From Candidatus Micrarchaeota archaeon (GTDB lineage Archaea > Micrarchaeota > Micrarchaeia > Micrarchaeales > CABMGC01), in contig JAJYOL010000001.1 of NCBI GenBank assembly GCA_021796225.1, positions 3,471 to 67,470 on the forward strand: a stretch of DNA of 64,000 bases. The letters run 5' to 3'. The position numbers and the translations under genes are program-made. Under the pieces are notes generated by a model. That model ran no database searches. It saw nothing but the letters and a program-made list of their open reading frames with translations, and had not been told where the DNA came from. Shown here piece by piece: positions 4,011-63,965 of this stretch (positions are counted from its first letter, which is position 1; each line of letters begins with the position of its first letter).

Positions 4011-4039
4011 TCGCATGTATGTAACGCGCAATTAGATCG

Positions 4040-5819
4040 GTGGATATCATGGCAGGCATTCCTGAAAACAAACGCGCATTTCTTTCAAATGGGCTGACTT
4101 CCGCGATAGAACTTTCCGGCTCTATCGATTGGTTTCCTTGTCCGCGTTTCGATTCCCCCTCTTTATTCAGTAAAATACTTGATGAAAAATCCGGGGGGAA
4201 GTTCTCAATCCGTCCGGAACAGGAATATTCCGTTGAGAGCGTATATCTCCCAAAGACTCTTGCACTGGAAAGCACCTTTACAACAAAGGACGGGAAATTG
4301 AAACTTACGGATTTTATGCCAATAGGCGTGCCTTCGATAATTCGGATGTTTGAATCAGAAATTCCTTTCATAGCGGAAATAGATCCTATCTTCGACAATG
4401 CCATGACACGCCCATCCATTGAGGAGTTGGAACAGGGTTACGTATTCAAAAATTACAAAACGTCAGAAAGTTTTGAGGTCCGCTTTACCGGAAACTATGA
4501 GATATTAGGGCGGGGTCTCGTAAGATTTCTTCCCGGAAATGGGCACATACTCTCCATATATTTCAAAAACTTCAAATACGGCCTTTTCAGCAAGAAGGGT
4601 TTCGTATATCCATTTCCAAAAGAGGCTCTTGGGATAACCACGGAATATTGGGAGAGCCAGGTATCTGCAGCACGCGACGTGAAAAATTTTACGGATGCGT
4701 ATTACAGGTCTATAGCTGTAATGATAGGGCTCATGTATTTTCCATCGGGCGGAATTATAGCGGCTCCAACCTCATCGATACCGGAAATAATCGGGCAGAG
4801 CAGGAATTGGGACTACCGTTACGTGTGGGTAAGGGATTCTGCATATGCGATAGAGGCTCTTGCAAATGCGGGTCTTGTATCGAAAGCTTCCAGAATACTT
4901 AATTTTCTGATAAGCGTTCTCGACCCATCATCAAAGAGCTTTGATCATCCTCTTTTTCAGATAGACGGCACCGCCCCCCCCTCCAGAGGAAGAATTGGGA
5001 TGGCTGCAGGGATACAAATCGTCAAGACCCGTACGCATCGGCAATGCGGCATATCAGCAGGTCCAAATGGATTGCGAAGGAGCGTTCATCGACGCTTTGC
5101 ATACGTATGTGGCTAAAACACAGGATTTCAATTATCTTAAAGAGAACATGTGGGCCGTGCATTCGATAGCGAAATGGACGGAATCGTCATGGAAATTGGA
5201 CGGTACTTCATTATGGGAAGAACGCGAAGTAGGCAGGCATTACGTTCATTCGAAGGTCATGTGCTGGGTGTCCATGGACAGGGCGGCAAAAATGGCGCAA
5301 ATGCTGGAAAACAACACTGAAGCTGCCAAATGGCACGCGGAAGCCGACAAAATAAAGAAAGACATTTTGGAAAAAGGGATCTCGAAGACGCATGGCGGAT
5401 TTACCAAATATTATGACGGAGAAGAAACGGATTCATCCCTGCTTCTGCTTCCCCTCTACGGATTTGTCGATGCAAATGATCCTGTATTTTCAAAAACGCT
5501 GCGTCAGATAGAAAAGGAATTGATTACAAAGGAAGGGCTCATGATTCGATACAAATCCGACATGATGGGCAGCATAGTAAACCCGTTTACGCTTCTGAAC
5601 GCATGGCTGGCAAGAGTCTACATAAAACGTGGCGAAATCGACAAGGCTAAGGCAACAATAGACACCATGCTGAGTTATGCCAACGATCTGCTCCTTTTTG
5701 CAGAGCATGTAAATGCCGAGACAAGGGAACCTCTTGGGAATTTCCCGCAACTCTTTCCACATGCTGGTTTAGTACAGGCAATACTTGAATACGAGGATGC
5801 AGTTTCCTCTAAAAAGTAG
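4040..5819 (+). pseudogene. GH15 glucoamylase-family glycoside hydrolase, interrupted by a +1 frameshift in a C8 homopolymer (4974..4981)
   Basis: The N-terminal SIDWFPCPRFDSPSLF region matches archaeal GH15. The C-terminal part continues in another frame with PPPEEELGWLQGYKSSRPVRIGNAAYQQVQMDCEG (GH15 motif) and then DYRYVWVRDS. The two ORFs, 4040..5116 and 4995..5819, overlap. Confidence 0.7.
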
Positions 5820-7387: not shown

Positions 7388-7485
7388 GCAGGGGTGGCGG
7401 AGCCTGGTCAAACGCGGCAGACTCAAGATCTGCTGGCTTAGGCCTGCGGGAGTTCAAAGCATTTGAACAAATCTCTCCCCCTGCA
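7388..7485 (+). tRNA. tRNA-Leu(CAA) with a putative 13-nt non-canonical intron in the T-loop (7459..7471)
   Basis: Acceptor GCAGGGG/CCCCTGC. D-arm GCGG/ACGC. Anticodon stem GCAGA/TCTGC with loop CTCAAGA. Long variable arm TGGCTTAGGCCTGC. T-stem GGGAG/CTCTC with the loop interrupted by GCATTTGAACAAA, which pairs with exon GTTCAAA. Discriminator A. Confidence 0.65.
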
Positions 7486-15048: not shown

Positions 15049-15152
15049 AACAAGGGTTTCCCTTTTCTGTTTAAATAATCTTTTCATTTATGCCCTTTAA
15101 TCTGTGTTTTCAACCGACAACATCTTTATTTACTTTTCACTGTATGGTACTC

Positions 15153-16040
15153 ATGAAGATCATGAAAGTGCGTGTATTACGTTTCAAAAGCAATACCTTA
15201 ACCAAACTCCAATCGGCAATGGAGTATCTGATGACTTACGGGTGGGCAATACTAGTCATTGCGGTTGTTCTAGGCGTTCTCTATTCCCTCGGGATATTCA
15301 GTCCTTCAAACTTCGCACCTAAGGCGTCTCCTGGTTCATGTCAGATATTTCGACCGAATGGTCCTGGAACGAATTACGATATAAATCTCGAAGGAACGTG
15401 CAGCGGCGAACTGCCGGAATATACCGCTCAGTTTAACGGTGCCAGCGCTTACATATCGTTGTCTTCCTCCGCTCCATCAAAAAGCTATACGCAACTAAGT
15501 GTTTCCGCATGGGTTACTAAACCTGCAGACACGTCAAGAAATGAAATTCTGAATTTTTTCGGTTTTTATTTTAATGTGCAGCAAGGAAATGAAGCATGCC
15601 TTTACGTAAATAATATCAATACAGGATATTTGTGTTCAACTCCTTCCTTAATATCAGGATATAATTTCCTTACAGCAACACTAAACGGCAGTACCGAAAC
15701 CGTTTATGTGAACGGCAAGCTTTCCAATACTACAACTGTTTCAGGGACCGGATCTGGGGTTCTTGGGGGAACGGTTGGCGTATGTTCCTATTGCGGAAAT
15801 ACGGATTATTTCGACGGGCAAATAGCAAACATACAATTTTACAATGCCTCACTAAATCAGAACAGCATAACCGCCCTTTACGATGAAGGCATAGGCGGTG
15901 CACCTGTTGACATTCAGAATCTCGTAGACTGGTGGCCGCTGAACGGAAATGCGAACGACTACAGCGGAAACAACAATGACGGTGTACCTACCAATGTACT
16001 ATTCACTGGATCGTGGCAGTCAGGATATACGTCACCATGA
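15153..16040 (+). CDS. Class III signal peptide pilin-like protein with LamG-like jellyroll, paralog 2
   Basis: Same conserved N-terminus (KLQSAMEYLMTYGWAILVIAVVLGV...GSCQIFRPNGPGTNYDINLEGTCSGELPEY) and C-terminus (NLVDWWPLNGNANDYSGNNNDGVPTNVLFTGSWQSGYTSP). Variable core. Divergently transcribed from ksgA. Confidence 0.8.
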   Translation: MKIMKVRVLRFKSNTLTKLQSAMEYLMTYGWAILVIAVVLGVLYSLGIFSPSNFAPKASPGSCQIFRPNGPGTNYDINLEGTCSGELPEYTAQFNGASAYISLSSSAPSKSYTQLSVSAWVTKPADTSRNEILNFFGFYFNVQQGNEACLYVNNINTGYLCSTPSLISGYNFLTATLNGSTETVYVNGKLSNTTTVSGTGSGVLGGTVGVCSYCGNTDYFDGQIANIQFYNASLNQNSITALYDEGIGGAPVDIQNLVDWWPLNGNANDYSGNNNDGVPTNVLFTGSWQSGYTSP

Positions 16041-24742: not shown

Positions 24743-24815
24743 ATATATGCAGAGTCCCGTCATCTAGTGGCCAAGGATCGCGGGCTTTGGACCCGCGTAC
24801 GCCAGTTCGAATCTG
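24743..24815 (+). tRNA. tRNA-Gln(UUG)
   Basis: Acceptor AGTCCCG/CGGGACT. Anticodon stem GCGGG/CCCGC with loop CTTTGGA. T-arm GCCAG-TTCGAAT-CTGGC. Confidence 0.8.
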
Positions 24816-24894
24816 GCCGGGACTATCCTGTGATGAGACGAGGTATTTCTGATTTGTGAAGACAAAGAGAGTCGCTGAGGTATATCCAAACTTT

Positions 24895-27054: not shown

Positions 27055-27197
27055 GGGGTTGTTGCGTAACTTGGCAGCGCGGCAGGCTCCAGATGTTTAT
27101 TTGGAATCTATGAGCGAAATGCGATGATTAAGATTTGGAGCGATGATTTGTGATCAGGCGTTACCTGCAAATTCGGGTTCAAATCCCGACAACCCCA
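27055..27197 (+). tRNA. tRNA-Trp(CCA) with roughly 70-nt intron (about 27093..27162)
   Basis: Acceptor GGGGTTG/CAACCCC. D-arm GCGT/GCGC. Anticodon stem GCAGG/CCTGC with loop CTCCAG-A. T-arm TCGGG-TTCAAAT-CCCGA. Discriminator A. The intron contains internal direct repeats. Confidence 0.75.
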
Positions 27198-43211: not shown

Positions 43212-43320
43212 GGGCTCGTAGCTCAGCCTGGTTAGAGCGCTGGTCTTATACTGCTCTTTTGGTTTAAATCAAAAGGCATAGGCAAGCCAGATGTCGAGAG
43301 TTCAAATCTCTCCGGGCCCA
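43212..43320 (+). tRNA. tRNA-Ile(UAU) with 34-nt intron after position 37 (43251..43284)
   Basis: Acceptor GGGCTCG/CGGGCCC. D-arm GCTC/GAGC. Anticodon stem CTGGT/GCCAG with loop CTTATA|intron|A. T-arm GAGAG-TTCAAAT-CTCTC. Discriminator A. Confidence 0.7.
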
Positions 43321-43800: not shown

Positions 43801-45597
43801 TTACGGATTTCTTTTGTATAAAACAGCCGTATTTGTATTATTCATATCATATGAATTGCCAAACTGTGTTTCCGATTGTGACAAGTTCGGCGAGAATACC
43901 ACATGCAGATTAGTACATGACAGTACTTTGTTATCATATGGTACGCTGTAAATCCCGATAATATAATTACCGGTAAGAGAACTGCAATTGTCGAAAATTG
44001 TCGAATAATTTACATTTACTTTATAATTTGCATAACTTTCAATGATCATCCAATAAAGGAAATTAAATGTATTTATGGATTGGTACACGGATGTGAATTC
44101 ATCTGGATTCAACGCCGGCTGTATCACGTCAGTTTTGTTCAGTCCTGAAACGATATATATCGTAGCATTCTTTGGCAGTGCGGCAATGGCCTTTGAAATT
44201 TGTGACCATCCGTCAGTTAAAATACCATTTTCCTGGTGAATGGCTCCCATCAAAAGAATGGCATTTGCTATCAATAACATATATCCAAATATTATGACCA
44301 TGAGTAAAGCTTTTGAGGATAATGGTATAGATTTTCGTCCTTTTTTGTGTTTTATTATTTCATTAAGGCCTTTGCTTATTGCTATCCCGATGATTATTGA
44401 CAACGGGGGAATCACTATAATCATGAATCTTGGAAGAAATAGCATATACCCGTTAAACGGCAGACTGTCCACCCCGAATGACATATAAGCGGACAACAGT
44501 AAAAACCATGCAATTGGGATTAAAGCGGCATATTGTTTTTGTTTGATTGAGAGAATTACCAGAAAAACAATGCTTATTATCATAGCGTATCCGAAAAATC
44601 CGATAATATTCGGATATACATTAAGTGAAAATTTGGAAAAATCTCCAAATTCGGAAACGAATGGCCAGAAGAACGGATAAGATACGTTATTGTATGCGTC
44701 GTGTAGCGGTAGCAATAGCGAAAGAAACGCACCGATTCCGGGTGTGCTGGAAGATATATATGTACCAGGTCTACCATTATTTTGAAAATGGGTAATGAAA
44801 TAAGCCATAGCATTCGACTGCAAAAGATAACCCAATGTGAATATCATTGCAACTGCCAAAACCATTCCTAAAAGAAACGCAAAGGACCGTATCAACTGGA
44901 CCTTATTCCTATTTTTTACAAATACGTATGTCAGATATGGTATTAGAAACATGAAAACTGTAAAATTCAACACGCTTCCCCCCAATATGCCTGTGAGCCC
45001 TATAAATCCGGACAACGCATAATATCCAATCTGCTTTTTTCTAATTCCCAGTAGAATTAAAAGTACTGCCAATGTTGCGAAGAATGCAACAGGCATGTTG
45101 TCCCCGGAAGCTGCGCCTTCGGCAGCAATCAAGGGCACAAAAATAAATGTACATGCCGAAATCAGACCTGCGAACGTGCCATCAAGAATTTTTGCGATAA
45201 AAAATATGCATATTATCGTTCCAATCAGGCAAATCATGCTAAACAGTCCTTCGGTAAAAAGACTGATTCCAAACAGCCTGAATAGCAATGCCTGCACTCC
45301 TGACAATATGTATTTGGTTAAGAAATTTGCATATATGGAATTGCTGAAACCGTGTGTTGTTATCTGATGTGAAAAATACAAATAATATACGTCATCCATT
45401 AAATCTAAGTACATACCCGGACCAAGAACGGTCTTTATGCTTAGATAAACGCCCAATACCGCAATAATCATCAGGGCAGGGATCCAGTATTTTTTTGTCA
45501 GACGCGTTTGTTTTATTTTTTCGACATTAACAATTGCGCGAACGTATACAGCCAAGGTAACAAGGAATTTTTTAATTATCAAATTAAGCTTTGACAT
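43801..45597 (-). CDS. GT-C fold glycosyltransferase (PMT/ArnT-like, GT39/GT83-like) polytopic membrane protein
   Basis: 598 aa, 12 or more TM helices plus C-terminal extracytoplasmic domain. No WWDYG (not AglB). Confidence 0.55.
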   Translation of the reverse strand: MSKLNLIIKKFLVTLAVYVRAIVNVEKIKQTRLTKKYWIPALMIIAVLGVYLSIKTVLGPGMYLDLMDDVYYLYFSHQITTHGFSNSIYANFLTKYILSGVQALLFRLFGISLFTEGLFSMICLIGTIICIFFIAKILDGTFAGLISACTFIFVPLIAAEGAASGDNMPVAFFATLAVLLILLGIRKKQIGYYALSGFIGLTGILGGSVLNFTVFMFLIPYLTYVFVKNRNKVQLIRSFAFLLGMVLAVAMIFTLGYLLQSNAMAYFITHFQNNGRPGTYISSSTPGIGAFLSLLLPLHDAYNNVSYPFFWPFVSEFGDFSKFSLNVYPNIIGFFGYAMIISIVFLVILSIKQKQYAALIPIAWFLLLSAYMSFGVDSLPFNGYMLFLPRFMIIVIPPLSIIIGIAISKGLNEIIKHKKGRKSIPLSSKALLMVIIFGYMLLIANAILLMGAIHQENGILTDGWSQISKAIAALPKNATIYIVSGLNKTDVIQPALNPDEFTSVYQSINTFNFLYWMIIESYANYKVNVNYSTIFDNCSSLTGNYIIGIYSVPYDNKVLSCTNLHVVFSPNLSQSETQFGNSYDMNNTNTAVLYKRNP

Positions 45598-49892: not shown

Positions 49893-50783
49893 ATGTTACG
49901 GGGAAGAAGCACATCAAAAATCCAGAGCGCAATGGAGTATCTGATGACCTATGGTTGGGCCATACTCGTCATTGCCGTTGTCCTTGGAGTTCTCTATTCA
50001 CTCGGAATTTTCAGTCCTTCGAACTTTGCACCGAAGGCACAACCCGGATCGTGTCAGGTATTCCGCCCGAACGGCCCCGGCACAAGTTATGATGCGAATC
50101 TCGAAGGAACGTGCAGCGGCGAACTGCCTGAATACGTGGCAAATTTCAGCGGAAGGTCGTCAATATCAAACATTAACGTGAGTTACCTTAAAACAAACAA
50201 CGGAACGATAAGTTTGTGGTATAAAGGAACCGGCACAGGAAGACAATTCATTTGGTCAATGGGCACCGACGGCAGTGCAAACGATATGGATTTGATATCG
50301 ACAAGCGGTACCGGCAGCAACGTTATTTTTTATTTTAGGGTTTTCAACGTTTCCGATGTTCAGTTCAATACTAACGTAAGAGTCGATCCGTATTCCCCTT
50401 CAACTTTTTACAATCTAGTTGCACAATGGACCAGCACAAATTCTATTTATTTGTACCTGAACGGCATCATGATTAGCGATAAAGGCGGCGTAGTATATCC
50501 GCAATCTTTCGGATGTCCTGAAAAGATCGGAGGATCCTGTAACGGCCAAGGGCTGATAGCAGACCTTGCAAACGTGCAGGAATACAATACTTCTTTATCA
50601 ACAAATGAAATACAGGCACTCTACCAGGAAGGAATAGGTGGTGCACCGATTAATCTGCAACATTTGGTGGCATGGTTCCCGCTCAACGGCAATCCGAATG
50701 ATTACTCTGGCAACAATAATGACGGTATACCTGTTAATGTAATCTATACTGGAACATGGCAAGGAGGGTATTCCGCACCATAG
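49893..50783 (+). CDS. Class III signal peptide pilin-like LamG protein, paralog 3 (first gene of the tandem triplet)
   Basis: Conserved N-terminus (SKIQSAMEYLMTYGWAILVIAVVLGV...) and C-terminus (HLVAWFPLNGNPNDYSGNNNDGIPVNVIYTGTWQGGYSAP). Confidence 0.8.
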   Translation: MLRGRSTSKIQSAMEYLMTYGWAILVIAVVLGVLYSLGIFSPSNFAPKAQPGSCQVFRPNGPGTSYDANLEGTCSGELPEYVANFSGRSSISNINVSYLKTNNGTISLWYKGTGTGRQFIWSMGTDGSANDMDLISTSGTGSNVIFYFRVFNVSDVQFNTNVRVDPYSPSTFYNLVAQWTSTNSIYLYLNGIMISDKGGVVYPQSFGCPEKIGGSCNGQGLIADLANVQEYNTSLSTNEIQALYQEGIGGAPINLQHLVAWFPLNGNPNDYSGNNNDGIPVNVIYTGTWQGGYSAP

Positions 50784-50792
50784 GTAAGGCAC

Positions 50793-51677
50793 ATGAAATC
50801 AAAACTTCAATCCGCAATGGAATACCTCATGACCTATGGATGGGCAATACTCGTCATTGCGGTTGTCCTTGGCGTTCTTTATTCACTCGGAATATTCAGT
50901 CCTTCGAACTTTGCGCCGAAGGCACAGCCTGGAAGCTGCCAGGTCTTCAGACCTAACGGCCCTGGAACGAATTATGATATAAATCTTGAAGGCACGTGCA
51001 GCGGTGAACTGCCGCAGTATGTCGCACAGTTTGACGGGGCATCGAGTTATTTCAAAACTCTTGGATTTTCTACTATGCATCCAATAACATCATCATCTCA
51101 AATATCTATAGCGTTTTGGATGTACCTTACAGGTTACCCTCCAAACACACTTGACAATAATTTCATCCAAATCAAATCCGATGCGGGCGGTATAAGTTAT
51201 AGGATAGCATATAGCGTTGCAGGAAACGGAGCATGTGCGAAAAATACAGGAATATGGGTTCAAATATGCTCAAGCAACGCCATTCCGTTGAATAACTGGA
51301 CGGAGATAGTATACGCTTATAATGCACTCTCAATGCAAATATATTTTAATGGTAAATATTCTGACGGAGGAAATTGGACAGCAATAAATAACAACTCAGG
51401 AAGCATGTATTTTTTTGTCCCTGATTTTGCAACTGGTTATCAGATCCCTCCTTATCGTATTGCCAATGTCCAAATTTACAACACGTCACTATCCGCAAAT
51501 GATATTTCCGCACTGTATCAGTCAGGCATCGGGGGATCTCCTATCCATATACAAAATTTGATTGCATGGTATCCATTAAATGGAAACACAAACGATTATT
51601 CTGGTAATAATGAGGAAGGGTTTCCAGTTAACATGATGTATGTCGGTACATGGCAAGGAGGGTATTCCGCACCATAG
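50793..51677 (+). CDS. Class III signal peptide pilin-like LamG protein, paralog 4
   Basis: Conserved termini; core AQFDGASSYF...AFWMY...NVQIYNTSLSANDISALY (LamG_3-like). Confidence 0.8.
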   Translation: MKSKLQSAMEYLMTYGWAILVIAVVLGVLYSLGIFSPSNFAPKAQPGSCQVFRPNGPGTNYDINLEGTCSGELPQYVAQFDGASSYFKTLGFSTMHPITSSSQISIAFWMYLTGYPPNTLDNNFIQIKSDAGGISYRIAYSVAGNGACAKNTGIWVQICSSNAIPLNNWTEIVYAYNALSMQIYFNGKYSDGGNWTAINNNSGSMYFFVPDFATGYQIPPYRIANVQIYNTSLSANDISALYQSGIGGSPIHIQNLIAWYPLNGNTNDYSGNNEEGFPVNMMYVGTWQGGYSAP

Positions 51678-51686
51678 GTAAGGCAC

Positions 51687-52526
51687 ATGAAATCAAAACT
51701 TCAATCCGCAATGGAATATCTCATGACATATGGATGGGCTATACTAGTCATTGCGGTTGTTCTAGGTGTTTTGTACTCGCTAGGAATTTTTAGTCCGTCA
51801 AACTTCGCACCGAAGGCACAGCCTGGAAGCTGTCAAGTATTCAGACCGAACGGCCCTGGAACGAATTACGATATAAATCTTGAAGGAACGTGCAGCGGCG
51901 AACTGCCTGAATATGCTGCGCAATTCGATGGCAAATCAAGTTACATAAATGCCGGCGAGAGTTCGCTGCTGCAATCGAATACTTTTACTATAACGGCATG
52001 GGTAAATCCCGCAACGCTCGATTTAAGCGGAAATGCCATAACCGGCAGCTCTTCTCCAAGCGGCGTCGAGTTCAGACTGGCAAATTCCGGGGGGAAATTA
52101 TACCTGCAAGCACTCAAGGAAGACATAACTGGAATAGGGACATCTACAGGATACGTATCTGCAGGCACTTGGAGTTTTGTCGCAGTAACATACAATTCAA
52201 GTGCAAATGGTGCTTATGCCTATTACGTAAATGGGGCAAATGCAGGTTCCGGAAACAACTTGCAAACTTTCTCATGGAGCAGCCAATACATAGGAAAACA
52301 ATCAAGCAACACGGAATACTTCAACGGCATGCTCTCAAATGTGCAAATATACAACGTTTCGTTATCGGGAAATGATGTTGCCGCTTTGTACGCCGAAGGC
52401 ATAGGGGGAACACCTACAGATTTACGGCACATATGCGGCTGGTGGCCGCTGAACGGAAATGCGAACGATTACAGCGGAAACAACAACGACGGCATACCAA
52501 CTAACATTATTTACAAAAATACCTAG
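51687..52526 (+). CDS. Class III signal peptide pilin-like LamG protein, paralog 5, 3'-truncated by IS insertion
   Basis: Ends ...NDGIPTNIIYKNT* and lacks the conserved TG(S/T)WQ(S/G)GY(S/T)AP tail. A remnant of the tail sequence is found after the IS right end, at about 54352..54380. Confidence 0.75.
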   Translation: MKSKLQSAMEYLMTYGWAILVIAVVLGVLYSLGIFSPSNFAPKAQPGSCQVFRPNGPGTNYDINLEGTCSGELPEYAAQFDGKSSYINAGESSLLQSNTFTITAWVNPATLDLSGNAITGSSSPSGVEFRLANSGGKLYLQALKEDITGIGTSTGYVSAGTWSFVAVTYNSSANGAYAYYVNGANAGSGNNLQTFSWSSQYIGKQSSNTEYFNGMLSNVQIYNVSLSGNDVAALYAEGIGGTPTDLRHICGWWPLNGNANDYSGNNNDGIPTNIIYKNT

Positions 52527-52632: not shown

Positions 52633-53025
52633 ATGGGATACAAACATAAGCGAACAAGTGTGGCAATGGTAAACTACCACATAGTATTCTGTCCGAAATA
52701 TAGGAGAAAGTTATTGGTAGGTGGCATAAAGAAAAGGCTTGAAGAGGTTATGTTTGATGTCGCACTTGAAAATGGGTGGAAGATTATTTCAAAAGAGGTC
52801 ATGCCAGATCACGTCCATCTATTCGTCTCTGCTGATGTAAGGTCAAGACCAGAGATAGTAGTCAAGAGATTCAAAGGCAGAAGTTCAAGGTATCTGCGCA
52901 ATGAGTTTCCAGAGCTCTTGAAGATGCCAACATTGTGGACTCGCTCATACTTTCTTTCAACCGCAGGAAATGTGTCCGCTGCGACAATCAAGAAATATAT
53001 AGAACAACAATGGGATAAAGTATGA
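52633..53025 (+). CDS. tnpA: IS200-type Y1 HUH transposase TnpA
   Basis: 130 aa; HUH motif HVHLFV; catalytic Tyr region TLWTRSYF. Confidence 0.85.
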   Translation: MGYKHKRTSVAMVNYHIVFCPKYRRKLLVGGIKKRLEEVMFDVALENGWKIISKEVMPDHVHLFVSADVRSRPEIVVKRFKGRSSRYLRNEFPELLKMPTLWTRSYFLSTAGNVSAATIKKYIEQQWDKV

Positions 53026-53261: not shown

Positions 53262-54284
53262 ATGATGATTCTAACCTTCAAAATAAAACACGAAAGAAAT
53301 TTCTCCCCTGAGTTAGGAAAGGCAAGAAAGATTGCGGAGTATGTCTTGACACACAAAACAAGGTCTTCTAAGGATGTAAAACAATTCGGTCTAAAATCCG
53401 CAATCGCAAATCAGATACTCAGGAAATATGGAAACAACGAAACAATCAAGAATGTCAATAAGATAAAACTGACTGTTCCTTCTCAGTCGGTCAACGCAAA
53501 CAAAGAGCATAGGACAATAGAAATTCCGTGTCTAAAGTTCACCGCGCCATATAACTTCAGGAACGACTACGATAAGATAAACCAGATAGAACTGGACAAC
53601 GAATACGCCTATGTTTCAGTAAATGTAAAGGAAGAGCCACAAATAGTTCCTCAAACATGGATAGGCGTAGACAGAAACACAACAGGTCATATTGCAGTAG
53701 CAGGAAATCCAGAGACAGGGAAGATTCTGAAACTCGGAAAGGAGGCACTCCATATTCACAAGAAATACAGAAACATAAGAAGGAAGATGCAAAGAGAAGG
53801 AAAGTATAGCGTGGTAAAACGGATAAAGGACAGGGAATCAAGAATAATCAAGAACATAAACCACAACGTCTCAAAGGCAATAGTTGAGGCTGCAAAGGAA
53901 AATAATGCAGGGATAAAGTTGGAGAAACTGGAAGGCATAAGAAAAAACAGGAAGCACATAAGGAACTTCAACTACGGTCTGCATAGTTGGTCGTTCTACC
54001 AATTGCAGACGTTCATTGAATACAAAGCAAAATTATATGGAATACCTCTAACCTACGTGGAGCCTAAAAACACGTCCAAGGACTGTTCAAGGTGCGGAAA
54101 CGAAGGTATTAGAGATTCAAAAAAATTCGTGTGCCAGTCGTGTGGACACGTAGACCATGCCGACGCAAATGCATCGTTCAATATATCGCAGCGTCCTCCA
54201 ATTGGAGAAGGCAGAAGTCAATTGAATGCAGACAGGGATGCATTCAAGGGCAGCACTGATACGCCCCAAGGTGCAACTCTATGA
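53262..54284 (+). CDS. tnpB: IS605-family TnpB (RuvC-like nuclease with C-terminal zinc finger)
   Basis: RuvC-like motifs; zinc finger CSRCGN...CQSCGH; DADANASFNI. Confidence 0.85.
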   Translation: MMILTFKIKHERNFSPELGKARKIAEYVLTHKTRSSKDVKQFGLKSAIANQILRKYGNNETIKNVNKIKLTVPSQSVNANKEHRTIEIPCLKFTAPYNFRNDYDKINQIELDNEYAYVSVNVKEEPQIVPQTWIGVDRNTTGHIAVAGNPETGKILKLGKEALHIHKKYRNIRRKMQREGKYSVVKRIKDRESRIIKNINHNVSKAIVEAAKENNAGIKLEKLEGIRKNRKHIRNFNYGLHSWSFYQLQTFIEYKAKLYGIPLTYVEPKNTSKDCSRCGNEGIRDSKKFVCQSCGHVDHADANASFNISQRPPIGEGRSQLNADRDAFKGSTDTPQGATL

Positions 54285-56387: not shown

Positions 56388-56431
56388 CTTTACACCTAAG
56401 ATGTATTCACAAAAAAATGTTAAGTGATAGA

Positions 56432-59392
56432 ATGAAAAGTCTAAATGCAAAGAGAATAGCCGCTGTTGCGGCAAGTTTGGTAATGGGCATAGCCGTTGCT
56501 GGACAGGGTGTAACCTTCGGTAACATCCCTATCATAAGCAACCAGGGCCAGCCAGTCGTGCAGATAGTAGTGGGAAGCCACGCAGCACCTAGCGACGGAG
56601 TTGTCGCTGCGAACATCGCTGCGGTAATAGGCAACCTGGCACTTACGACCCAGAACGTAACCGCAACGGTCTCGACCGTTAATGGAACGTCCGCATGTGT
56701 CGTAACAACGCCTAAGTGCACACTGACAAACCAGCAGGTTTGGCTTGGCGAAAGTGGACTGTCCGCACCTAGCGGATCGTACTCATTCGGTGCGTTGATT
56801 GGTTCTGTAATAAACAGGGCTATACAGCTCAACACGCCTGCCAACACGAAGTCTCTGCAGGGATCAAGCTCACAATATGTGTATCCTGAATCCACTTCTT
56901 TGACTTCAACGCCTGCACCTAGCCCTTACTACGGAGTCGGTGTTCCACTGACAAACGCAGTAACTGCTAACTACAATGGAGGAGGCGTCGGCTTCGGCTC
57001 AACATTCACGAGCGGAGGTTCAGACAACATACTTCAGGTAAGCAGCGCACAGCTCCCTGCACTTTTGGGCAATTCTGGCTCAAACGGTGAAAGTGAGTAT
57101 CTGTGGCTTACGGGTTTCCCTGTATACAACCAGGAATCTACGGTAAACAACTTCCAGGTATTCGATGCCGGAGGTGCATACCAGATGACCTTTAACAAGC
57201 CTATACAGAACCAGACATCATCTGGCTCAACAAGCATAAATGTTCCTATAACATTGCTTGGACAGAGTTGGACAATAGTGAACGAAACTGGAGCAGGAAA
57301 GACCTCTTCAGTATCAAGCCAGCAGTTCACGACTGGTGGTAGCTTGTGGCTCGCATCTTCATTGACCCCTCTGCAGACTGTATACGTTGGTCACAACGTT
57401 TCAAACAGCTCTGTCGGCGGATTCAATGTAGAACTTACGGACCTTGGTCAGCCTAACTCCAACGGTGTAAGCACTGCAGCTTTGCAGGTTTACTACAACG
57501 GAGTGCCTACGAACACAACGCAGGTCAATGCGTACTCAACACAGAAGTTCAACGTTTCCGGACACATCTTGTATGTGCACGTAAACCAGACCTTCGCAGG
57601 GTTGTATGCATACCAGAAGTGGGCAAAGGTTCAGCTCTATTCCAACCTCGTACAGTTGAACAACGGTAAGAAGTTCAACCAGACTGGCGACAATGGATGG
57701 TACACGAACCTGTGGTGGACAAACACGTCAACATCAGGACAGGCAGATGCATTGCAGAGCATTGTAATATACAATACCTCTCCAACAACGCTGTCAACCG
57801 GACAAAGCTTGACGTTCTTGCCTAACCCTTCAAAGTATCAGCTTACTTTCGTAGGAGACAACCTCGGCAACAACTATGATCCGATACAGGCGCAGACTGC
57901 GTATTCGTCATCATTGCAGTACCAGAACCTCGGTACGGTAAGCGATGCACCTACAAGCCTGCAGATATCCAACATAACGGAACCTGCACAGGAACTTGTA
58001 GTCACAAGCTCAATACCGAACGCATTCAGCTACGCGGGACAGACAAGCTCAAGCGTAACATACGACTTGACTCCATACCAGCTCAATGAATACGGCAACT
58101 CAGTGACGACCAACACGATCGACACAGTGGCATGGAACTTTGCGGCTGCAAGCAGCACTGGTGCATGGATATCAAGCACGAACCCTGTTACTGTCAGAGT
58201 AACTGGATACGCAAGCAATACTGCAACTGCGATGACTTCCGACCCTGTAACATTCGATTCGATGTCAGGGAACGCCGTGCTTAGCACGAACCTGTACAAT
58301 GTTACTGGAATACAGCTCCAGCAGACACTTCCTGCAGGAACGTTGAGCATATATGCTGGAAACAGCGTAGGTCTCAATGGTGCAACGAACGTGATTTCAG
58401 GAACGCAGCTCGCTGCAAGCTTGACAGCAACAACGTCAGCACCTGGTCCGTCAATAGTGTATTCACTGAGCGGCAAGAACTATGATTACCTTGCCCCTGT
58501 AAGCGGAAACACTGTGATCTACAACCAGCAGAACGGTCAGTCAACAAGCAACTTCGTGCTTGCGACCGCGACGCCTTCTGGAACGTCTGCATCAACGTAC
58601 TTCACCTATACTCTGAACGAGATAGCGGTACCGACGAACACGGCTGCACAGGACTCGCTTGCATTCGGAATAGACAACACGACTGCTGGAATACAGCAGG
58701 GTGGAGCTCTATACCAGCTGAACTACTCTAAGACTGGTACGCACAACAACGCGACGTACACCTCAACGCAGGGAACGTCACTCAGCGTGAAGCAGGGCTT
58801 CGTGACTGAACGCGGAAGCAAGGTCGCTTCAATAACGCCTTCAAGCGTTACATTCGACCTGGCAAAGGCCGTCGACCAGTTGGAGTTCGTAGTAGGGCCG
58901 GCAACGACCAATACGACAGCATTGTCAACAACGACAAACTATGGTCCATACACAGTTGGACAGCAGACAAACCTGGCTAACGTAACCATAGCGGAGGTCA
59001 ATGCAACATGTGCATTCACCGCAACAAGCTGCTCAGTAAACACGAGCGACTTGAATGCAGTGCCTTCAGTGTCGCAGGCAGTAGTGTCTTCACACCTCAA
59101 CACGGCGACAACGCCTCTTGCGGTGCTTGACGCGAATGCAAACAATGCATCCACGCTCGTCGTAGTAGGAAGCGCGTACGTGAACTCTGTCGCAGGACAG
59201 ATATTCGCGGACAACCCACAGTTCGCTTCAAGCTTCGACAACGGAGGAGTGTCAGGGCCTAATGCGGTCACAGTGCAGTCGTTCGGTGCAAACAGAATCC
59301 TGGTAGCAGGGTTCAACGCAAGCCAGACGGTAGAAGCTGGAAACCAGTTCATAAACCAGCTCCTGACGCAGGCAAGCAGCACCACGGGCTAA
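56432..59392 (+). CDS. Large secreted surface glycoprotein, candidate S-layer protein
   Basis: Sec signal peptide (MKSLNAKRIAAVAASLVMGIAVAGQ). About 985 aa. Extremely Thr/Ser/Asn/Gln/Val-rich with many N-x-S/T sequons. A strong terminator follows. Confidence 0.6.
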   Translation: MKSLNAKRIAAVAASLVMGIAVAGQGVTFGNIPIISNQGQPVVQIVVGSHAAPSDGVVAANIAAVIGNLALTTQNVTATVSTVNGTSACVVTTPKCTLTNQQVWLGESGLSAPSGSYSFGALIGSVINRAIQLNTPANTKSLQGSSSQYVYPESTSLTSTPAPSPYYGVGVPLTNAVTANYNGGGVGFGSTFTSGGSDNILQVSSAQLPALLGNSGSNGESEYLWLTGFPVYNQESTVNNFQVFDAGGAYQMTFNKPIQNQTSSGSTSINVPITLLGQSWTIVNETGAGKTSSVSSQQFTTGGSLWLASSLTPLQTVYVGHNVSNSSVGGFNVELTDLGQPNSNGVSTAALQVYYNGVPTNTTQVNAYSTQKFNVSGHILYVHVNQTFAGLYAYQKWAKVQLYSNLVQLNNGKKFNQTGDNGWYTNLWWTNTSTSGQADALQSIVIYNTSPTTLSTGQSLTFLPNPSKYQLTFVGDNLGNNYDPIQAQTAYSSSLQYQNLGTVSDAPTSLQISNITEPAQELVVTSSIPNAFSYAGQTSSSVTYDLTPYQLNEYGNSVTTNTIDTVAWNFAAASSTGAWISSTNPVTVRVTGYASNTATAMTSDPVTFDSMSGNAVLSTNLYNVTGIQLQQTLPAGTLSIYAGNSVGLNGATNVISGTQLAASLTATTSAPGPSIVYSLSGKNYDYLAPVSGNTVIYNQQNGQSTSNFVLATATPSGTSASTYFTYTLNEIAVPTNTAAQDSLAFGIDNTTAGIQQGGALYQLNYSKTGTHNNATYTSTQGTSLSVKQGFVTERGSKVASITPSSVTFDLAKAVDQLEFVVGPATTNTTALSTTTNYGPYTVGQQTNLANVTIAEVNATCAFTATSCSVNTSDLNAVPSVSQAVVSSHLNTATTPLAVLDANANNASTLVVVGSAYVNSVAGQIFADNPQFASSFDNGGVSGPNAVTVQSFGANRILVAGFNASQTVEAGNQFINQLLTQASSTTG

Positions 59393-59421: not shown

Positions 59422-59459
59422 GGCGGGGCCTTTTTGGCCCCGCCTTTTCTTTTTCTTTT
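59422..59459 (+). terminator. Hairpin GGCGGGGCC-TTTTT-GGCCCCGCC followed by a T-tract
   Basis: Perfect 9-bp GC-rich stem immediately after the 56432..59392 gene, then an oligo-T run (an archaeal termination signal). Confidence 0.6.
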
Positions 59460-59611
59460 GGTTTTAAATCTTTCAGCGTAAGCTAGGTCTCAAATGCTCT
59501 GCATCTCACGAAACCCCTCTTTTCCTCTTCAAAATTCGCATATTCTTTATAATTCACGGCTTAAGAACCAACAATAGTATATTTTATATATCAAACGGTT
59601 GGAACAATAAT

Positions 59612-61744
59612 ATGCCTAAGCACATGCGCAAACGCGCGCATACATACGTCAAAGACGCTTCAGCTAAAAGCAGGAGGCATAATCACACATTCGCCCAGGC
59701 AGCAATAGAATATCTTACCACTTACGGCTGGGCAATCCTAATTATAGCAATTGTCATATCCCTCATGTATGCTTTCGTTTTCGCACCTTCATTCGTAGTG
59801 CCGCAGAAATGTACTTTCGGATCGGGCGCATACTGCAACGACGTAATTCTCGGTACTGCGACAAACACGTCAAAAATGGTTTTGTTGCTTTCGAATTCGC
59901 GGCAATACGCCTTAAATAATCCGGGAATTATCTTATCTATAGAGAATGTAGGAAACGTTACCGGGACTTGTTATCCTTCATACGTGCTTCCTGGAGGCAC
60001 GATGGTGTGCAATGCCACAATACCTGCAGGATATTCTGCAGGATCTATAGTATCGTCTGAAATGTATCTGAGCGGAACAACTTGCACGTCAAATTCCAAT
60101 TTGTGTACCTCAAATCCATTACAGGTCTTTTCGGGTTCCGTTGTTGCGCATTCGCAGCCCATCCTCGCATCAGAACCAGTATCGATATCACTGTATGCCG
60201 CAAATCTGACTCCTGCGATAAATTCCGGCCAGACCATGGTAACAGCAACCGTTACGCTTCTCGGTTATCCTCTTCCAGGTGCAACTGTAAACTTCACCGA
60301 AAACGCAGGCACGAATTTCACGCTTACCCCTTCACAATCAACCACTAACACGAACGGAAAAGCTGTCAGTTACCTGTCGAGTACGAAGACGGGTCCTGTC
60401 ACCGTAAACGCGACATTTGCAGGACATACTTCGTCAGTAACGCTCACGTATCAGTTGCAGAAGTACTACACAACCCAGGAATATACTACAACCGGTTCCG
60501 GTTCGGGAAACGGCACATATACGACGCAGCAATACGCCGTGTTGTGCCAGCCTACCGTTTCATTCTCCGGATTAACAACCATTACCGTTACGTGGTGCGG
60601 CGGAACTCCTCCCTATACTGTTACACTGTATTCCGGTTCGTCTCCAAATTGCGCGCTTGATACAAATGTCGTCGCAGTAAACACAGGGGTTACCACAACG
60701 TCAACATCATTTTCAATATCTACAGGAAGTGCATATTACTGTGCCACCGTTACGGATTCATCTTCATCACAACAGAGTGAAGGCTCCGGTTCTGGCGTGT
60801 CTTCAACTACATCCATTGCGACCGTAGTCACAAACGCTGCAACCAACGCTGCAACCAATGCGGCAACGAATGCAGCCACGACAATCACAAACGCTGCAAC
60901 CAATGCGGCAACGACAATTACAAACGCGGCAACGAACGCAGCAACCAATGCCGCAACAAATGCCGCAACCAGCGGTGCAACTGGGAAGGAAGGGACATGC
61001 ACATATTCAACACCTGTGGCAATTGTCGGATGTGTTTCAGGACCTTATAACTCTACCGAAGAAACATTCCTCCCATGCTCTTGCCTTGGATCCGGTGGAA
61101 CGTGTCAACCTCCATCCTATTCTGTAGGGTATGGTTATTCCGGAACCTACGAAGCCTGCGTGTATCCTTCGACTTCAACAACTGTTGCAACCATTATCAC
61201 CAATGCGGCGACGAATGCAGCAACCAATGCCGCAACCAACGCGGCTACCCATACAACGAACGCGGCTACCCATACAACGAACGCGGCTACTCATTCTACT
61301 AACGCAGCAACTCATACAACGAACGCAGCTTCAGTCAGTGGCGGAGGATCTGTATACGGAAGCACGATGATACTGCTCGCAAACGGGACGTACATACCTG
61401 CAAAGAATGTACAAGTCGGATCTATTTTGGAATCTTATAATTTCGTGCTAAACGAAACGGCACCTTCGGCTGTCATATACGTAACAACTACCATGGTGAA
61501 CAACACCTATGTGATAAACGGAAACCTTTCAGTAGATGCAGACGAAATAATATTCCTCAACGGTGCGTGGAACAGGGCATTCAATGCGAAGGTCGGCGAC
61601 GTGCTTTATGATCCTGTGACAAACAGCAACGTAACCATATACAATATATCCGTGAAGAACACTGGCGGAATCGTGTATGATTTCTATCTGGCTCCGAACA
61701 ACAATTTCGTTGCCGCAGGCTATCTCATAGATGCGAAAGTATAA
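59612..61744 (+). CDS. Pilin-like (class III signal peptide) surface protein with TNAA tandem repeats, Cys-rich module and degenerate C-terminal Hint-like domain
   Basis: N-terminus HTFAQ|AAIEYLTTYGWAILIIAIV, analogous to the pilin paralogs. Two blocks of 12-nt repeats encoding (TNAA)n. C-terminal roughly 130 aa matches the Hint block A pattern (S/T-MILLANGTYIPAKNVQVGSIL) and the terminal YDFYLAPNNNFVAAGYLID. It lacks the Cys nucleophile and the TxxH motif. Confidence 0.6.
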   Translation: MPKHMRKRAHTYVKDASAKSRRHNHTFAQAAIEYLTTYGWAILIIAIVISLMYAFVFAPSFVVPQKCTFGSGAYCNDVILGTATNTSKMVLLLSNSRQYALNNPGIILSIENVGNVTGTCYPSYVLPGGTMVCNATIPAGYSAGSIVSSEMYLSGTTCTSNSNLCTSNPLQVFSGSVVAHSQPILASEPVSISLYAANLTPAINSGQTMVTATVTLLGYPLPGATVNFTENAGTNFTLTPSQSTTNTNGKAVSYLSSTKTGPVTVNATFAGHTSSVTLTYQLQKYYTTQEYTTTGSGSGNGTYTTQQYAVLCQPTVSFSGLTTITVTWCGGTPPYTVTLYSGSSPNCALDTNVVAVNTGVTTTSTSFSISTGSAYYCATVTDSSSSQQSEGSGSGVSSTTSIATVVTNAATNAATNAATNAATTITNAATNAATTITNAATNAATNAATNAATSGATGKEGTCTYSTPVAIVGCVSGPYNSTEETFLPCSCLGSGGTCQPPSYSVGYGYSGTYEACVYPSTSTTVATIITNAATNAATNAATNAATHTTNAATHTTNAATHSTNAATHTTNAASVSGGGSVYGSTMILLANGTYIPAKNVQVGSILESYNFVLNETAPSAVIYVTTTMVNNTYVINGNLSVDADEIIFLNGAWNRAFNAKVGDVLYDPVTNSNVTIYNISVKNTGGIVYDFYLAPNNNFVAAGYLIDAKV
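60829..60969 (+). repeat. 12-nt coding tandem repeat (ACn AAy GCn GCn = TNAA), block 1
   Basis: Direct inspection. About 11 to 12 units with synonymous variation and TTIT interruptions. Confidence 0.8.
61196..61330 (+). repeat. 12-nt coding tandem repeat (TNAA / THTTNAA), block 2
   Basis: Direct inspection. Units ACCAATGCGGCG..., then a 21-nt superunit ACC CAT ACA ACG AAC GCG GCT repeated 4 times. Confidence 0.8.
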
Positions 61745-61871: not shown

Positions 61872-63965
61872 TTGATTTTAATGGATGAAAGGACGACCTC
61901 ATTCATTGCAATTGCTCTCGCGATTATGTTTATGGGGACTGTAGGGGCGGCGTCTACGCCTTCTACATCATCTCTTACACTGCTTCACCAATATTCCGTG
62001 CCTAATTCGATAATAACGCATCTTACGCAGGCTAATCTGACTTATAACGGATTAAGCTACGTTGCTCTTTACAACAATGGCGCTCTCGCATTCGTGATAA
62101 ATGGATCCGACAGTTCTTTTGTGACAGGCACGGGCAACATCTACAACGTCATACAGGCGTACACGGTAAATCAGAGCTATTCCAAAGTCAATTTCACGCA
62201 GATAGGTGCGCAGATGCATGCCTACGAAGCATCGTCAGCAGGGCCTCTTGCCGACTGCATGATGGAAACCGGTCTTTCCGGGGGTGCTACATGCACGCTA
62301 TCCAATATATGCGAGTCCTGCAGAACCGTTCCCGTATGTTCGAAAGTGCTCAGTGCAGTAGGCGGCCCTACTACGCCATTCGGCTATGGGTTAATGCAGT
62401 TTGAAAACAACGCCACCGTGCTCGACAACGCATTTGCAAATTTCTATTCATACATTAACAACGTCAACATAGGCAACGCCGCAACATTGTTACCTGCAAT
62501 GAGTGCCGAGGCGCAAAACATCTCCGATATAACCTCATCGCTAGGAGAAAATCCCATATTTCCTCCTCCACAGACTGCCGATTTCCAGCTATGTACTGGT
62601 GCAGGCAGCGGCTTCACATCCAACATACCGCTAAGCGGCGGAGTTCCATGGTACTGCAATGCCGTCGGTTTCTGCCAGTATCTGACATACAACACCACGC
62701 TCATAAACGGCATAAACACCGAACTAACGAATGCGGGTTCATCTTCAATAACAAAGCAGGGCATTGAATCAGTCGCATCGGCTGCAAACACCACCGAAGC
62801 TACATACATAACTCCTGTAATAGTAAAAGAAAAAGGCACGGTACTCTCGGGAATACTCAATACGACTCTGTACGGATATTCCGGCATCGTCAACGGATCA
62901 AAAACACTATTAAGCCACATAAGCAACGCAACGCTATCAAGCGAACTTTCCCGATTGGAGGGCAATTATTCTACTTTGACTAAGAACTATGCAAGCATAA
63001 ATCTTACTTCATACAATTCCATTCTCGCGGGCCAGTTCTCAAACGTGTCAAAACTATATTCCTTTCTCAATTCAAGCTATTCCGCACTTTCATCGACAGC
63101 GCAGAACAACACGAACGACATAACAAACCTTGAACTCAAATCGAAGACTGAAAATCCTACGCTTGCTTCTCTCGCATTCAGGCAAATCTTGATAAACAAG
63201 GAGCTTTCCGGCAGTATAGGCAACACGACACAATTATCCCAGCAGCTCAATGCTGTAAGGCTGGCGCTGAATGGCATGGGGATAAACGAGAATCCTGTCA
63301 GCGCACTTTCAAGATATGTCGGCGGACACATTGCAGTTTCAGTTGCAGGCCTGTTGCATTTGTCATACGATTCAAATGTCGCATTTGCACCATGGTTCGC
63401 ATCGATGCCTGCACTCATACTGTTCATAATCTCCCTTTTGTTGCTTCTGCATGCACTATTCCCTGGGAAAGCGGTATCACAATCCATGCTTCTAAAAGGC
63501 AATGCGAAGAAAAGCAGCAATAAGGGCAAACTGGTCGTTTTCGCATTTGTCATGCTATTGTACCTGATATTATCTCTGGCATTGTCCTCAACAAATAATT
63601 CCAGCGTTACCGCATCAACGGTAAGTCATGCAATCACGTCTTCCAACACTATTGTTATTGCACTTAACGGCACGCAGACAAGCGGCATGCTGTCCTGTGC
63701 ATCTTCGATATCTGCCCATTTGATGGGGATGAACAAAACAGTCATTCGCACAACGATAAACGGGATAAAGTGTGTTTCAAACGGCAGCATAGAAACAACG
63801 AGCGCATGCCTTAACGGCTACGTGCACAGCGGCACCCCTGTCGTGATGCTGACAAATTCTTCCGTTAACAGGGCAAACATGTATTCGTTCTACGGCACAA
63901 TGATAAATTACGGCGGCAATTCCACATATCTTGGCAAATGCACGCCTGATGAATTAATCGGGTAA
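61872..63965 (+). CDS. Large secreted protein with C-terminal TM anchors (surface protein)
   Basis: Sec-type signal (MILMDERTTSFIAIALAIMFMGTVGAAS). About 700 aa, Ser/Thr/Asn-rich. Two hydrophobic helices near the C-terminus. Confidence 0.5.
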   Translation: MILMDERTTSFIAIALAIMFMGTVGAASTPSTSSLTLLHQYSVPNSIITHLTQANLTYNGLSYVALYNNGALAFVINGSDSSFVTGTGNIYNVIQAYTVNQSYSKVNFTQIGAQMHAYEASSAGPLADCMMETGLSGGATCTLSNICESCRTVPVCSKVLSAVGGPTTPFGYGLMQFENNATVLDNAFANFYSYINNVNIGNAATLLPAMSAEAQNISDITSSLGENPIFPPPQTADFQLCTGAGSGFTSNIPLSGGVPWYCNAVGFCQYLTYNTTLINGINTELTNAGSSSITKQGIESVASAANTTEATYITPVIVKEKGTVLSGILNTTLYGYSGIVNGSKTLLSHISNATLSSELSRLEGNYSTLTKNYASINLTSYNSILAGQFSNVSKLYSFLNSSYSALSSTAQNNTNDITNLELKSKTENPTLASLAFRQILINKELSGSIGNTTQLSQQLNAVRLALNGMGINENPVSALSRYVGGHIAVSVAGLLHLSYDSNVAFAPWFASMPALILFIISLLLLLHALFPGKAVSQSMLLKGNAKKSSNKGKLVVFAFVMLLYLILSLALSSTNNSSVTASTVSHAITSSNTIVIALNGTQTSGMLSCASSISAHLMGMNKTVIRTTINGIKCVSNGSIETTSACLNGYVHSGTPVVMLTNSSVNRANMYSFYGTMINYGGNSTYLGKCTPDELIG

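Follow-up and report, generated by a model that had tools for sequence, protein, structure and literature searches.

A predicted histidine-less Hint domain caps a pilin-like modular surface protein of a Candidatus Micrarchaeota archaeon

Hint domains are the engine of protein splicing, of Hedgehog maturation and of toxin release; in Hedgehog, cleavage occurs between a Gly and a Cys. The best-matching described relatives of the domain reported here are the BIL domains, whose A-type and B-type forms were defined by Amitai et al. 2003 and Dassa et al. 2004 (as summarised in PMC7765530). A-type BILs have a conserved C-terminal His-Asn, whereas B-type BILs have all the N-terminal intein motifs, including TxxH, and lack the C-terminal motif (PMC7765530). 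Here we describe a Hint-superfamily domain at the end of a predicted pilin-like modular surface protein, encoded by an open reading frame (ORF) at 59612..61744 (710 aa, ATG start) in a 64,000-nt stretch of DNA from Candidatus Micrarchaeota archaeon (GCA_021796225.1, contig JAJYOL010000001.1, positions 3,471 to 67,470, forward strand), hereafter called the window. The gene and all its features lie on the forward strand. An earlier note on this DNA, made from the sequence alone, had delimited the ORF as we do and had read its last part as a degenerate Hint-like module. The Hint superfamily is known; what is new is a variant that caps archaeal surface proteins, with Ser at position 1 and DxxE in place of TxxH, referred to below as S1/DxxE.

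Judged by predicted fold, profile homology and its position-1 nucleophile, the last 131 aa of the protein are a true Hint-superfamily domain of the S1/DxxE subtype (aa 580-708; 61349..61735), after which only K709, V710 and the stop codon follow. An AlphaFold2 (AF2) model built on a 48-sequence alignment (A3) has a pLDDT of 94.3 and a pTM of 0.88. When this model was compared with the PDB by Foldseek, the best matches were all Hint folds, with a probability of 1.00 and query TM-scores (TMq) of up to 0.86: Tetrahymena BIL2 (6y75; TMq 0.86, E 2e-9), the C. thermocellum BIL (2lwy; 0.84) and the Ssp DnaB mini-intein (1mi8; 0.82), followed by many other inteins, Hedgehog (1at0; TMq 0.62) and Vint (8r2c). 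The Hint fold that had been proposed for the C-terminal ~130 aa is therefore what structure prediction returns, rather than some other beta fold. The alignment given to AF2 included canonical Hints, which may have pulled the model towards the Hint fold; the homology of canonical Hints to the query family is independently backed by HMMER, with E-values down to ~1e-37 (best TxxH-type match, P0042). Searched against PDB sequences, the A3 profile matched 2lwy (1e-19) and BIL2 (1.6e-19), with Ser580 falling on Cys1, D..E on T..H and D707 on the penultimate His.

Single-sequence searches with the C-terminal 134-137 aa yielded much less: the best Pfam match was a sub-threshold one to Intein_splicing (E 0.14), NCBIfam gave nothing and phmmer against the PDB gave chance matches only. 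When the C-terminal domain was put through a word-indexed search, P0028 was the sole homologue returned, at 70% identity. On its contig (L001) the P0028 gene extends upstream as …TNAATNSASSTNGGG/SVYGNTNVLLANG, and P0028 carries a second Hint that starts with Cys and scores 28.0 bits on PF07591 (PT-HINT), against a cut-off of 27.7. Positions 1..~120 of L001 are an inverted copy of an internal segment at ~360..468 (~110 nt), with the same 26-aa peptide on both strands. This copy is most likely an assembly artefact and, since it cuts the gene call, P0028 is a fragment of a longer TNAA-Hint-Hint protein, TNAA being the repeat described below. A profile of three domains, namely the query Hint and the two Hints of P0028, was searched against 1.84 billion representatives and matched 2660 proteins at E ≤ 1e-3 and 556 at E ≤ 1e-10. 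We inspected the best 150 of the 2660 proteins, which hold 186 full-length Hint domains. The consensus of these 186 is that of a canonical Hint, with Cys (141) or Ser (40) at position 1, GT.I.MADG, T-x-x-H (104 T, 101 H), VYN/D and a terminal H-N. The retrieved proteins bear PF07591, PF14890 and PF01079; among the aligned relatives, 24/48 match PT-HINT and 23/48 match Intein_splicing.

At the sites that define a canonical Hint, the domain in the window carries a different set of residues. Position 1 is Ser580, in the context GGG/SVYGSTMILLANG (the slash marks the putative scissile bond), and aligns to Cys1 of BILs and canonical Hints; the junction Gly577-Gly-Gly579/Ser580 lies at 61340..61351. 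The loss of TxxH that had been noticed earlier is borne out by the alignments, the equivalent of block B being V-D642-A-D-E645, with D642-A-D-E645 at 61535..61546. The equivalent of blocks F and G, VYD690FYLAPNNNFVAAGYLID707-A708 (61673..61735), has Asp for the block F Asn, Asp for the penultimate His and Ala for the terminal Asn, and the protein ends two residues further on (…GYLID707-A-K-V-stop). Ser580 thus corresponds to Cys1, D642/E645 to the block B Thr/His, D690 to the block F Asn and D707/A708 to the block G His/Asn. The earlier note held that the Cys-1 nucleophile had been replaced, which is right as far as the Cys goes; the nucleophile itself is not lost, Ser being a legitimate Hint nucleophile, and position 1 lies a few residues upstream of where the note had the first block begin.

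These substitutions recur across a family. The 10 nearest relatives, 40-56% identical outside the five sites, have S-D-E-D-D at these sites, except for one with C-D-Q-D-Q and one with Thr1. Below ~38% identity, relatives with the S/D/E set are mixed with others of Cys1/xxxQ subtypes, and the complete set can be followed down to ~34%. Positions 7, 69 and 72 served to define the S1/DxxE group (n=25), of which 24 members have Ser at position 1 and one has Thr; sites outside the definition are similarly kept: D690, G583 and P618 in 24/25 each, P668 in 23/25. At the corresponding positions the 101 His-type domains carry C, T, H and N, and a second histidine-less class combines Cys1 with (S/T/A)xxQ, a block F Asp and a terminal D, Q or E. 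Between the Hint of the window and its L001 homologue, pN is 0.21 and pS is 0.74, giving a dN/dS of ~0.07, with dS near saturation. The conservation of the residues and the low dN/dS argue for a coordinated switch (C to S, T to D, H to E, N to D, H to D) under purifying selection, not for decay, and the word 'degenerate' does not fit such a subfamily. By sequence comparison, the S1/DxxE Hint is a distinct, conserved and undescribed histidine-less subtype; we found neither Hint-capped archaeal or DPANN surface proteins nor a Ser/DxxE Hint described in an incomplete library of the literature, which is absence of evidence only.

The subtype also stands out by its position in the protein. S1/DxxE domains (n=25) lie at the extreme C-terminus, with at most 12 aa left, in 17 cases and are followed by another Hint in 8, and none has a non-Hint tail. 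Among the other histidine-less domains (n=60) the corresponding counts are 54, 1 and 5, and among the His-type domains (n=101) they are 10, 40 and 51, with a median of 229 aa for the tails of the latter. One His-type carrier, from an Omnitrophota bacterium, bears the annotation of a polymorphic-toxin-type HINT protein. In many archaeal relatives (P0030-P0038, P0028) the extreme C-terminus consists of a tandem pair of S1/DxxE Hints separated by 3-8 residues. Taxonomy is available for few carriers of the subtype, and these are archaeal where it can be judged: P0234 is named Micrarchaeota, and the 209-kb contig that encodes P0031 also encodes L7Ae, S28e, L24e, an archaeal histone and a V-ATPase subunit. 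Three S1/DxxE carriers of the representative set also have a Q-x-x-x-E-Y-L pilin-like N-terminus, and P0037 has its S1/DxxE Hint, through a GGGG/S junction, on an unrelated N-terminal region (one weak Kelch_6 match, E 0.0019). A terminal Hint, called unusual for an archaeal pilin-like protein in the earlier note, is thus a family trait of archaeal surface proteins and not peculiar to this one.

Two paralogues in another Micrarchaeota genome (isolate clean2166, contigs DAHWXM010000004.1 and DAHWXM010000005.1; L002:1248-3371 and L003:8052-10127) match the protein of the window domain for domain through GGG. Both end with a Hint of the Cys1/…TPxDQP… subtype, with a GVLVD(T/M)K terminus, that is only ~28% identical to the S1/DxxE Hint. 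Since they bear another subtype after the same stalk, the Hint is an exchangeable terminal module on a conserved stalk. A further paralogue (L003 5714..7252, forward strand) has the same pilin-like N-terminus, Ig domains and a TS-rich spacer, and after GGGC a short Cys-rich tail, CISPSTGIQCCANPCSVYYGDCSNKCLC, in place of a Hint; its tail likewise points to exchange of the terminal module within this stalk family. The Gly-rich junction is kept throughout, as GGG/S or GGG/C, in L001, P0037, L002 and L003. The closest full-length relatives are hypothetical proteins of Candidatus Micrarchaeota/Micrarchaeaceae metagenome-assembled genomes, with 36-47% identity across aa ~1-290, and searches of the JGI metagenomes and of the protein and genome collections gave no orthologue above ~50% identity.

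At the other end of the protein, motif content and a predicted helix plus beta-sandwich topology support the class-III-signal or pilin-like character that the N-terminus had been given before. A basic 28-aa leader (MPKHMRKRAHTYVKDASAKSRRHNHTFA; 59612..59695) ends at a putative prepilin-peptidase site ahead of Gln29, and the A/QAAIEYL junction is kept in the paralogues. The class-III-signal-like motif QAAIEYL and a hydrophobic helix follow (aa 29-57; 59696..59782), so that the N-terminus, reading …HTFA/QAAIEYLTTYGWAILIIAIVISL, has the charged leader, the Q-x-x-x-E motif and the ~20-aa hydrophobic stretch all present. The motif is common to five other ORFs of the window, in which QSAMEYLMTYGWAILVIAVV is closely similar to the N-terminal FAQAAIEYLTTYGWAILIIAIV of the Hint protein. 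An AF2 model of aa 1-203, made with 19 homologues (pLDDT 70.6, core 78-88), predicts a long helix at aa 25-57 and then a beta-sandwich at aa 66-180 (59807..60151) with six invariant Cys (67, 75, 120, 133, 158, 165). T37, Y38, W40 and A41 are invariant across the 19 homologues.

Two Ig-like domains extend the stalk. The first is a Big_1 bacterial Ig-like domain (aa 202-279; 60215..60448; PF02369, E 1.3e-11, 44.9 bits against a cut-off of 34.9). The second, a Cys-containing Ig-like domain with the signature WCGGTPPYTV…YYCATVTD (aa ~310-400; 60539..60811), was recognised by homology searches; NHL/YVTN beta-propeller surface proteins from Nitrososphaerales and further archaea contain it as a repeat, and the copy of the Hint protein has zero Pfam matches.

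The five other pilin-like ORFs of the window (806..1717, 15090..16040, 49893..50783, 50793..51677 and 51687..52526, all forward strand) have an identical 39-residue N-terminal segment, QSAMEYLMTYGWAILVIAVVLGVLYSLGIFSPSNFAPKA, and three of them stand in tandem. Of the four scanned against Pfam, which are those other than 806, three have a Laminin_G_3 (LamG) C-terminal domain and the ORF at 49893 is without a match. Identical N-termini joined to diverged C-termini suggest gene conversion or a very strong constraint on the assembly helix.

Several results weigh against calling the N-terminus a pilus subunit signal. The fold search with the N-terminal model gave generic Ig-like matches only, archaeal pilins matching no better than other Ig-like domains, so that a pilin fold is not proven by this route. 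Curated class III signal and pilin models in Pfam and NCBIfam had zero matches in aa 1-189, even at E ≤ 10, and no prepilin peptidase, pilus ATPase or platform protein was found among the 40 window ORFs scanned. The protein could instead be a membrane-anchored, S-layer-associated one that never enters a fibre, much as the sugar-binding 'bindosome' proteins of Sulfolobus use a class-III-type signal as an anchor. Its 710 aa put it far above the size of the major archaeal pilins and its gene lies directly 3' of an S-layer gene, both of which suit such a role. On the other side, the helix motif is nearly the same as in the five small LamG-type pilin-like ORFs, in bacteria there are modular pilins that carry grafted domains, and pilus assembly genes are not necessarily linked to pilin genes. 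We consider membrane anchoring outside a fibre quite possible, its chances falling somewhat short of even; it is compatible with either reading of the Hint domain that is weighed below.

Between the Ig-like domains and the Hint, two repeat tracts flank a Cys-rich unit. Both tracts begin and end within 1-3 nt of the limits reported earlier (60829..60969 and 61196..61330). Tract 1, (TNAA)n with two TTI insertions, spans aa 407-452 (60830..60967), and tract 2, (TNAA)4 followed by (TH(T/S)TNAA)4, spans aa 530-573 (61199..61330). Tandem Repeats Finder reported arrays at 60833-60981 (period 12), 60830-60961 (period 45), 61199-61239 (period 12) and 61233-61330 (period 21), the periods over the tract 1 region (60830-60981) being 12, 33 and 45. 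As peptides, all 18 TNAA units are 100% identical; their coding DNA comes in 14 versions, which share 79% identity over all nucleotides but only 37% at third positions, and the longest exact DNA repeats in the tracts are 25 and 32 nt. It follows that the peptide repeat is old and has been kept by selection at the protein level. At the sequence level the tracts are not a young microsatellite and offer a poor to modest substrate for slippage, which leaves little support for the suggestion that they are prone to length variation. In the L002 and L003 paralogues, the spacers at the same two positions differ in length and composition (TS-rich, TNGA/TNSA and TTK runs), and spacer length therefore varies between genes and genomes. 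The TNAA units contain 0 N-x-S/T sequons, and O-glycosylation of their Thr residues would be speculation.

The Cys-rich unit between the tracts was also confirmed: it is a 6-Cys module (Cys 463, 474, 489, 491, 498, 516; 60998..61159) that is kept in the L002 and L003 paralogues and has zero Pfam matches. Two candidates in this context were rejected. A minus-strand ORF at 60736..61002 (88 aa, VAAFVAALVAAF…) is a mere reverse-complement reading of the TNAA repeat and not a gene, and the length classes of the P0037 cluster (651/652 against 666-668 aa) reflect differences in the called start and a single Gly more or less in a poly-Gly linker, not TNAA-type repeats.

We propose that the protein is a modular pilin-like stalk whose terminal Hint is Hog/BIL-like and may act on the Gly579/Ser580 bond by cleavage or transfer, a reading of sequence, models and analogy that we think stands an even chance of being right. 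The protein would be exported and cleaved by a prepilin-peptidase-type enzyme ahead of Gln29. Its N-terminal helix would anchor it either in the membrane or within a pilus-like fibre, and the Ig domains and Thr/Asn/Ala spacers would make the Hint project outwards from the cell. On the model of Hedgehog/Hog and BIL domains, Ser580 would then attack the Gly579 carbonyl in an N-to-O acyl shift, with the carboxylates D642, E645, D690 and D707 standing in for Thr, His, Asn and His. Water could resolve the resulting ester, amounting to self-cleavage and release of the 131-aa Hint; alternatively, an external nucleophile could do so, which would transfer the new C-terminal Gly of the stalk. Only chemistry at the N-terminal junction would be expected, because nothing follows the Hint and block G is without His-Asn. 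Some small groups of inteins function despite having no block B His, by means of compensating residues (PMC6333167), and BIL2 transfers its N-terminal domain to lysine (PMC8616854).

A Hint so altered could also be catalytically inert, a structural cap or a binding or adhesion module at the tip of the stalk in which Ser, Asp and Glu are kept for folding or for a ligand. Much of what counts against an active domain bears directly on this point. The block B His is regarded as the most conserved catalytic residue of inteins and Hints, and we know of no Hint with a DxxE block B that has been shown to be active. Neither Pfam nor NCBIfam has a model that recognises the Hint of the window. Alignment by eye puts Ala at position 1 of the second, terminal Hint of the P0037 proteins, and at least some such terminal Hints must therefore be non-nucleophilic. 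Residue -1 varies across the S1/DxxE subtype (S, C, T, A, G), and with neither a C-extein nor an Asn there is no role in splicing to preserve. Moreover, loss of the block B His in the Ssp DnaB intein abolishes the acyl shift when Gly is at -1 (PMC6333167), and it is this inactive combination, TxxH absent and Gly579 at -1, that is found here. However, the position-1 Ser and the four carboxylates sit exactly at the catalytic positions of active Hints, and the five residues are kept in the 10 nearest relatives, with the Cys/Gln and Thr1 exceptions given above, while 44-60% of the remaining domain varies. A coordinated switch at four or five sites looks more like an alternative catalytic set than like loss of function, and the GGG/S junction is conserved (GGG/C in the paralogues). 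On this balance an inert cap is a serious contender, though one that we would lean against.

If the stalk with an active Hog/BIL-like Hint is taken further, the domain might be a carboxylate-based catalyst, suited to an extracellular and perhaps acidic milieu where histidine catalyses poorly. It could then act as a single-use, ATP-independent 'harpoon': a nucleophile on another molecule, such as the host envelope, the S-layer or another subunit, would resolve the Gly579~Ser580 ester and so tether the stalk covalently to that target, much as BIL2 conjugates ubiquitin-like domains. We regard this extension, drawn by analogy, as unlikely.

A PT-HINT polymorphic-toxin module, or a remnant of one that once released a C-terminal toxin, would account for the second Hint of P0028, which just passes the PF07591 cut-off, and for the canonical relatives annotated as polymorphic-toxin-type HINT proteins. 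Yet only two residues follow the Hint here and 0/25 S1/DxxE domains have a non-Hint tail, there is no HN motif for C-terminal cleavage, and neither the 127-bp spacer 3' of the gene nor the next ORF has Hint or toxin similarity, which makes a toxin origin very improbable. An intein, a decayed intein or a mobile element has next to no chance of being the right explanation: the fold and blocks resemble those of mini-inteins, but the domain is without a C-extein, terminal Asn, +1 nucleophile or homing endonuclease, and it sits in a protein that is not a conserved one, as a part of which it is under purifying selection. With no C-extein (as had been seen before), no Asn and no tail, both the intein and the toxin-delivery readings are excluded.

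The Ser/Asp/Glu/Asp/Asp subfamily shows either a new acyl-shift chemistry or a Hint fold reused in a non-catalytic surface role. A new route for the acyl shift, if true, would be useful for engineering inteins that work at low pH. DPANN carriers live attached to host cells, and a self-cleaving or self-attaching stalk tip would, if true, bear on how these symbionts contact their hosts. Such proteins are annotated as 'hypothetical' because no curated model recognises the domain.

The gene has the marks of a transcription unit of its own. Directly upstream lies a gene for a 991-aa S-layer protein (56417..59392, forward strand; S_layer_C E 3.7e-16, TIGR01564 1.3e-7), and 3' of it a terminator-like hairpin with 9 G-C pairs and a T-run (59422..59459, forward strand) splits the two transcription units; with so strong a hairpin between them, the two genes are probably not co-transcribed. 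A TATA-like A/T-rich element, TTTTATATA (59583..59591), read from the sequence 21-29 nt 5' of the ATG, suggests an own promoter and a leaderless or short-leader mRNA, its position relative to the start codon being judged from general knowledge of archaeal promoters. The downstream ORF (61872..63965, forward strand; 697 aa, TTG start) is hydrophobic in a segment at its N-terminus and in stretches near aa 500-600, contains many N-x-S/T sequons, has zero Pfam and NCBIfam matches and is probably a further uncharacterised envelope protein.

The window as a whole has a G+C content of 45.5%. Between the pilin cluster and the S-layer and Hint genes, two ORFs (52633..53025 and 53262..54284, forward strand) look by sequence like TnpA and TnpB of the IS200/IS605 type, and an ORF at 2709..3959 (forward strand) matches OrfB_IS605 and the Cas12f1-like TNB domain. 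An ORF at 43801..45597 (reverse strand) encodes a PMT_2-type membrane protein (dolichyl-phosphate-mannose protein mannosyltransferase-like). On L002, a 575-aa multi-pass membrane ORF (3390..5117, reverse strand) that adjoins the paralogue of the Hint protein is mannosyltransferase-like by eye only. PMT_2-type ORFs may be relevant to the glycosylation of Thr-rich surface proteins. Four tRNA matches lie in the window (7388..7485, 24753..24825, 27055..27197 and 43212..43320, forward strand); three of them span 98-143 nt and therefore probably contain introns, which are common in archaeal tRNAs.

How does this protein compare with the systems already described? Its N-terminal part resembles archaeal pilin-like proteins with class III signals and bacterial modular pilins in having a short charged leader, a Q…E motif, a ~20-aa helix, a beta-sandwich and grafted C-terminal modules; unlike the archaeal pilin-like proteins, it matches no curated model and its leader is long (28 aa). 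To our knowledge, a Hint has not been described before as a grafted pilin module.

The domain differs from true inteins in that only K709-V710 follow it and D707-A708 replace the block G His-Asn. The inteins of the Tko CDC21-1 group, which are naturally without the block B His, offer a precedent for an N-X acyl shift by way of compensating residues (PMC6333167); they have C-exteins and a bulky -1 residue, whereas the Hint here has Gly at -1 and several further sites changed. PT-HINT (PF07591) is the Pfam family most often matched by the relatives (24/48) and, as here, occurs in extracellular proteins and as tandem Hints. However, PT-HINT precedes a toxin tail (median 229 aa in the His-type relatives), which the S1/DxxE subtype never does, and the Hint here falls below the Pfam thresholds. 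BIL2 of the Tetrahymena thermophila BUBL1 locus (6y75/6tmm) is the top structural match (TMq 0.86) and sets a precedent for a Hint (thio)ester that is resolved by an external amine, conjugating the N-terminal domain without ATP (PMC8616854). Flanked on both sides by a ubiquitin-like domain, BIL2 carries Cys1, His69 and a terminal Asn, whereas the Hint here has neither the His nor a downstream domain.

BIL domains gave the best profile and structural matches (2lwy, A- and B-types; E 1e-19, TM 0.84), and the likeness extends to their setting. As with BILs, the Hint is found in variable, non-conserved secreted or surface proteins, not in housekeeping genes; orthologous architectures bear different Hint subtypes, and the S1/DxxE subtype also occurs on unrelated N-terminal regions. 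BILs cleave at the junction rather than splice, and the B-type is also without the C-terminal intein motif, as here. The motifs themselves differ: BILs have Cys1 and the block B TxxH, whereas here we find Ser1, DxxE and Asp at blocks F and G, and thus neither the HN of the A-type nor the TxxH of the B-type. Also unlike BILs, the S1/DxxE Hint is archaeal and always terminal or followed by another Hint. Hedgehog/Hog (1at0) has the same layout of a secreted N-terminal 'adduct' and a C-terminal Hint, with Gly at -1, a nucleophile at +1 and processing at the N-terminal junction only. In Hog, Cys1 and TxxH are present and the Hint is followed by a sterol-recognition region, whereas the Hint here (TMq 0.62) ends two residues past block G and has no such sterol/adduct region. 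By analogy, we infer that the Hint protein would work most like Hog or a B-type BIL, acting at the N-terminal junction of its Hint as part of a variable secreted protein.

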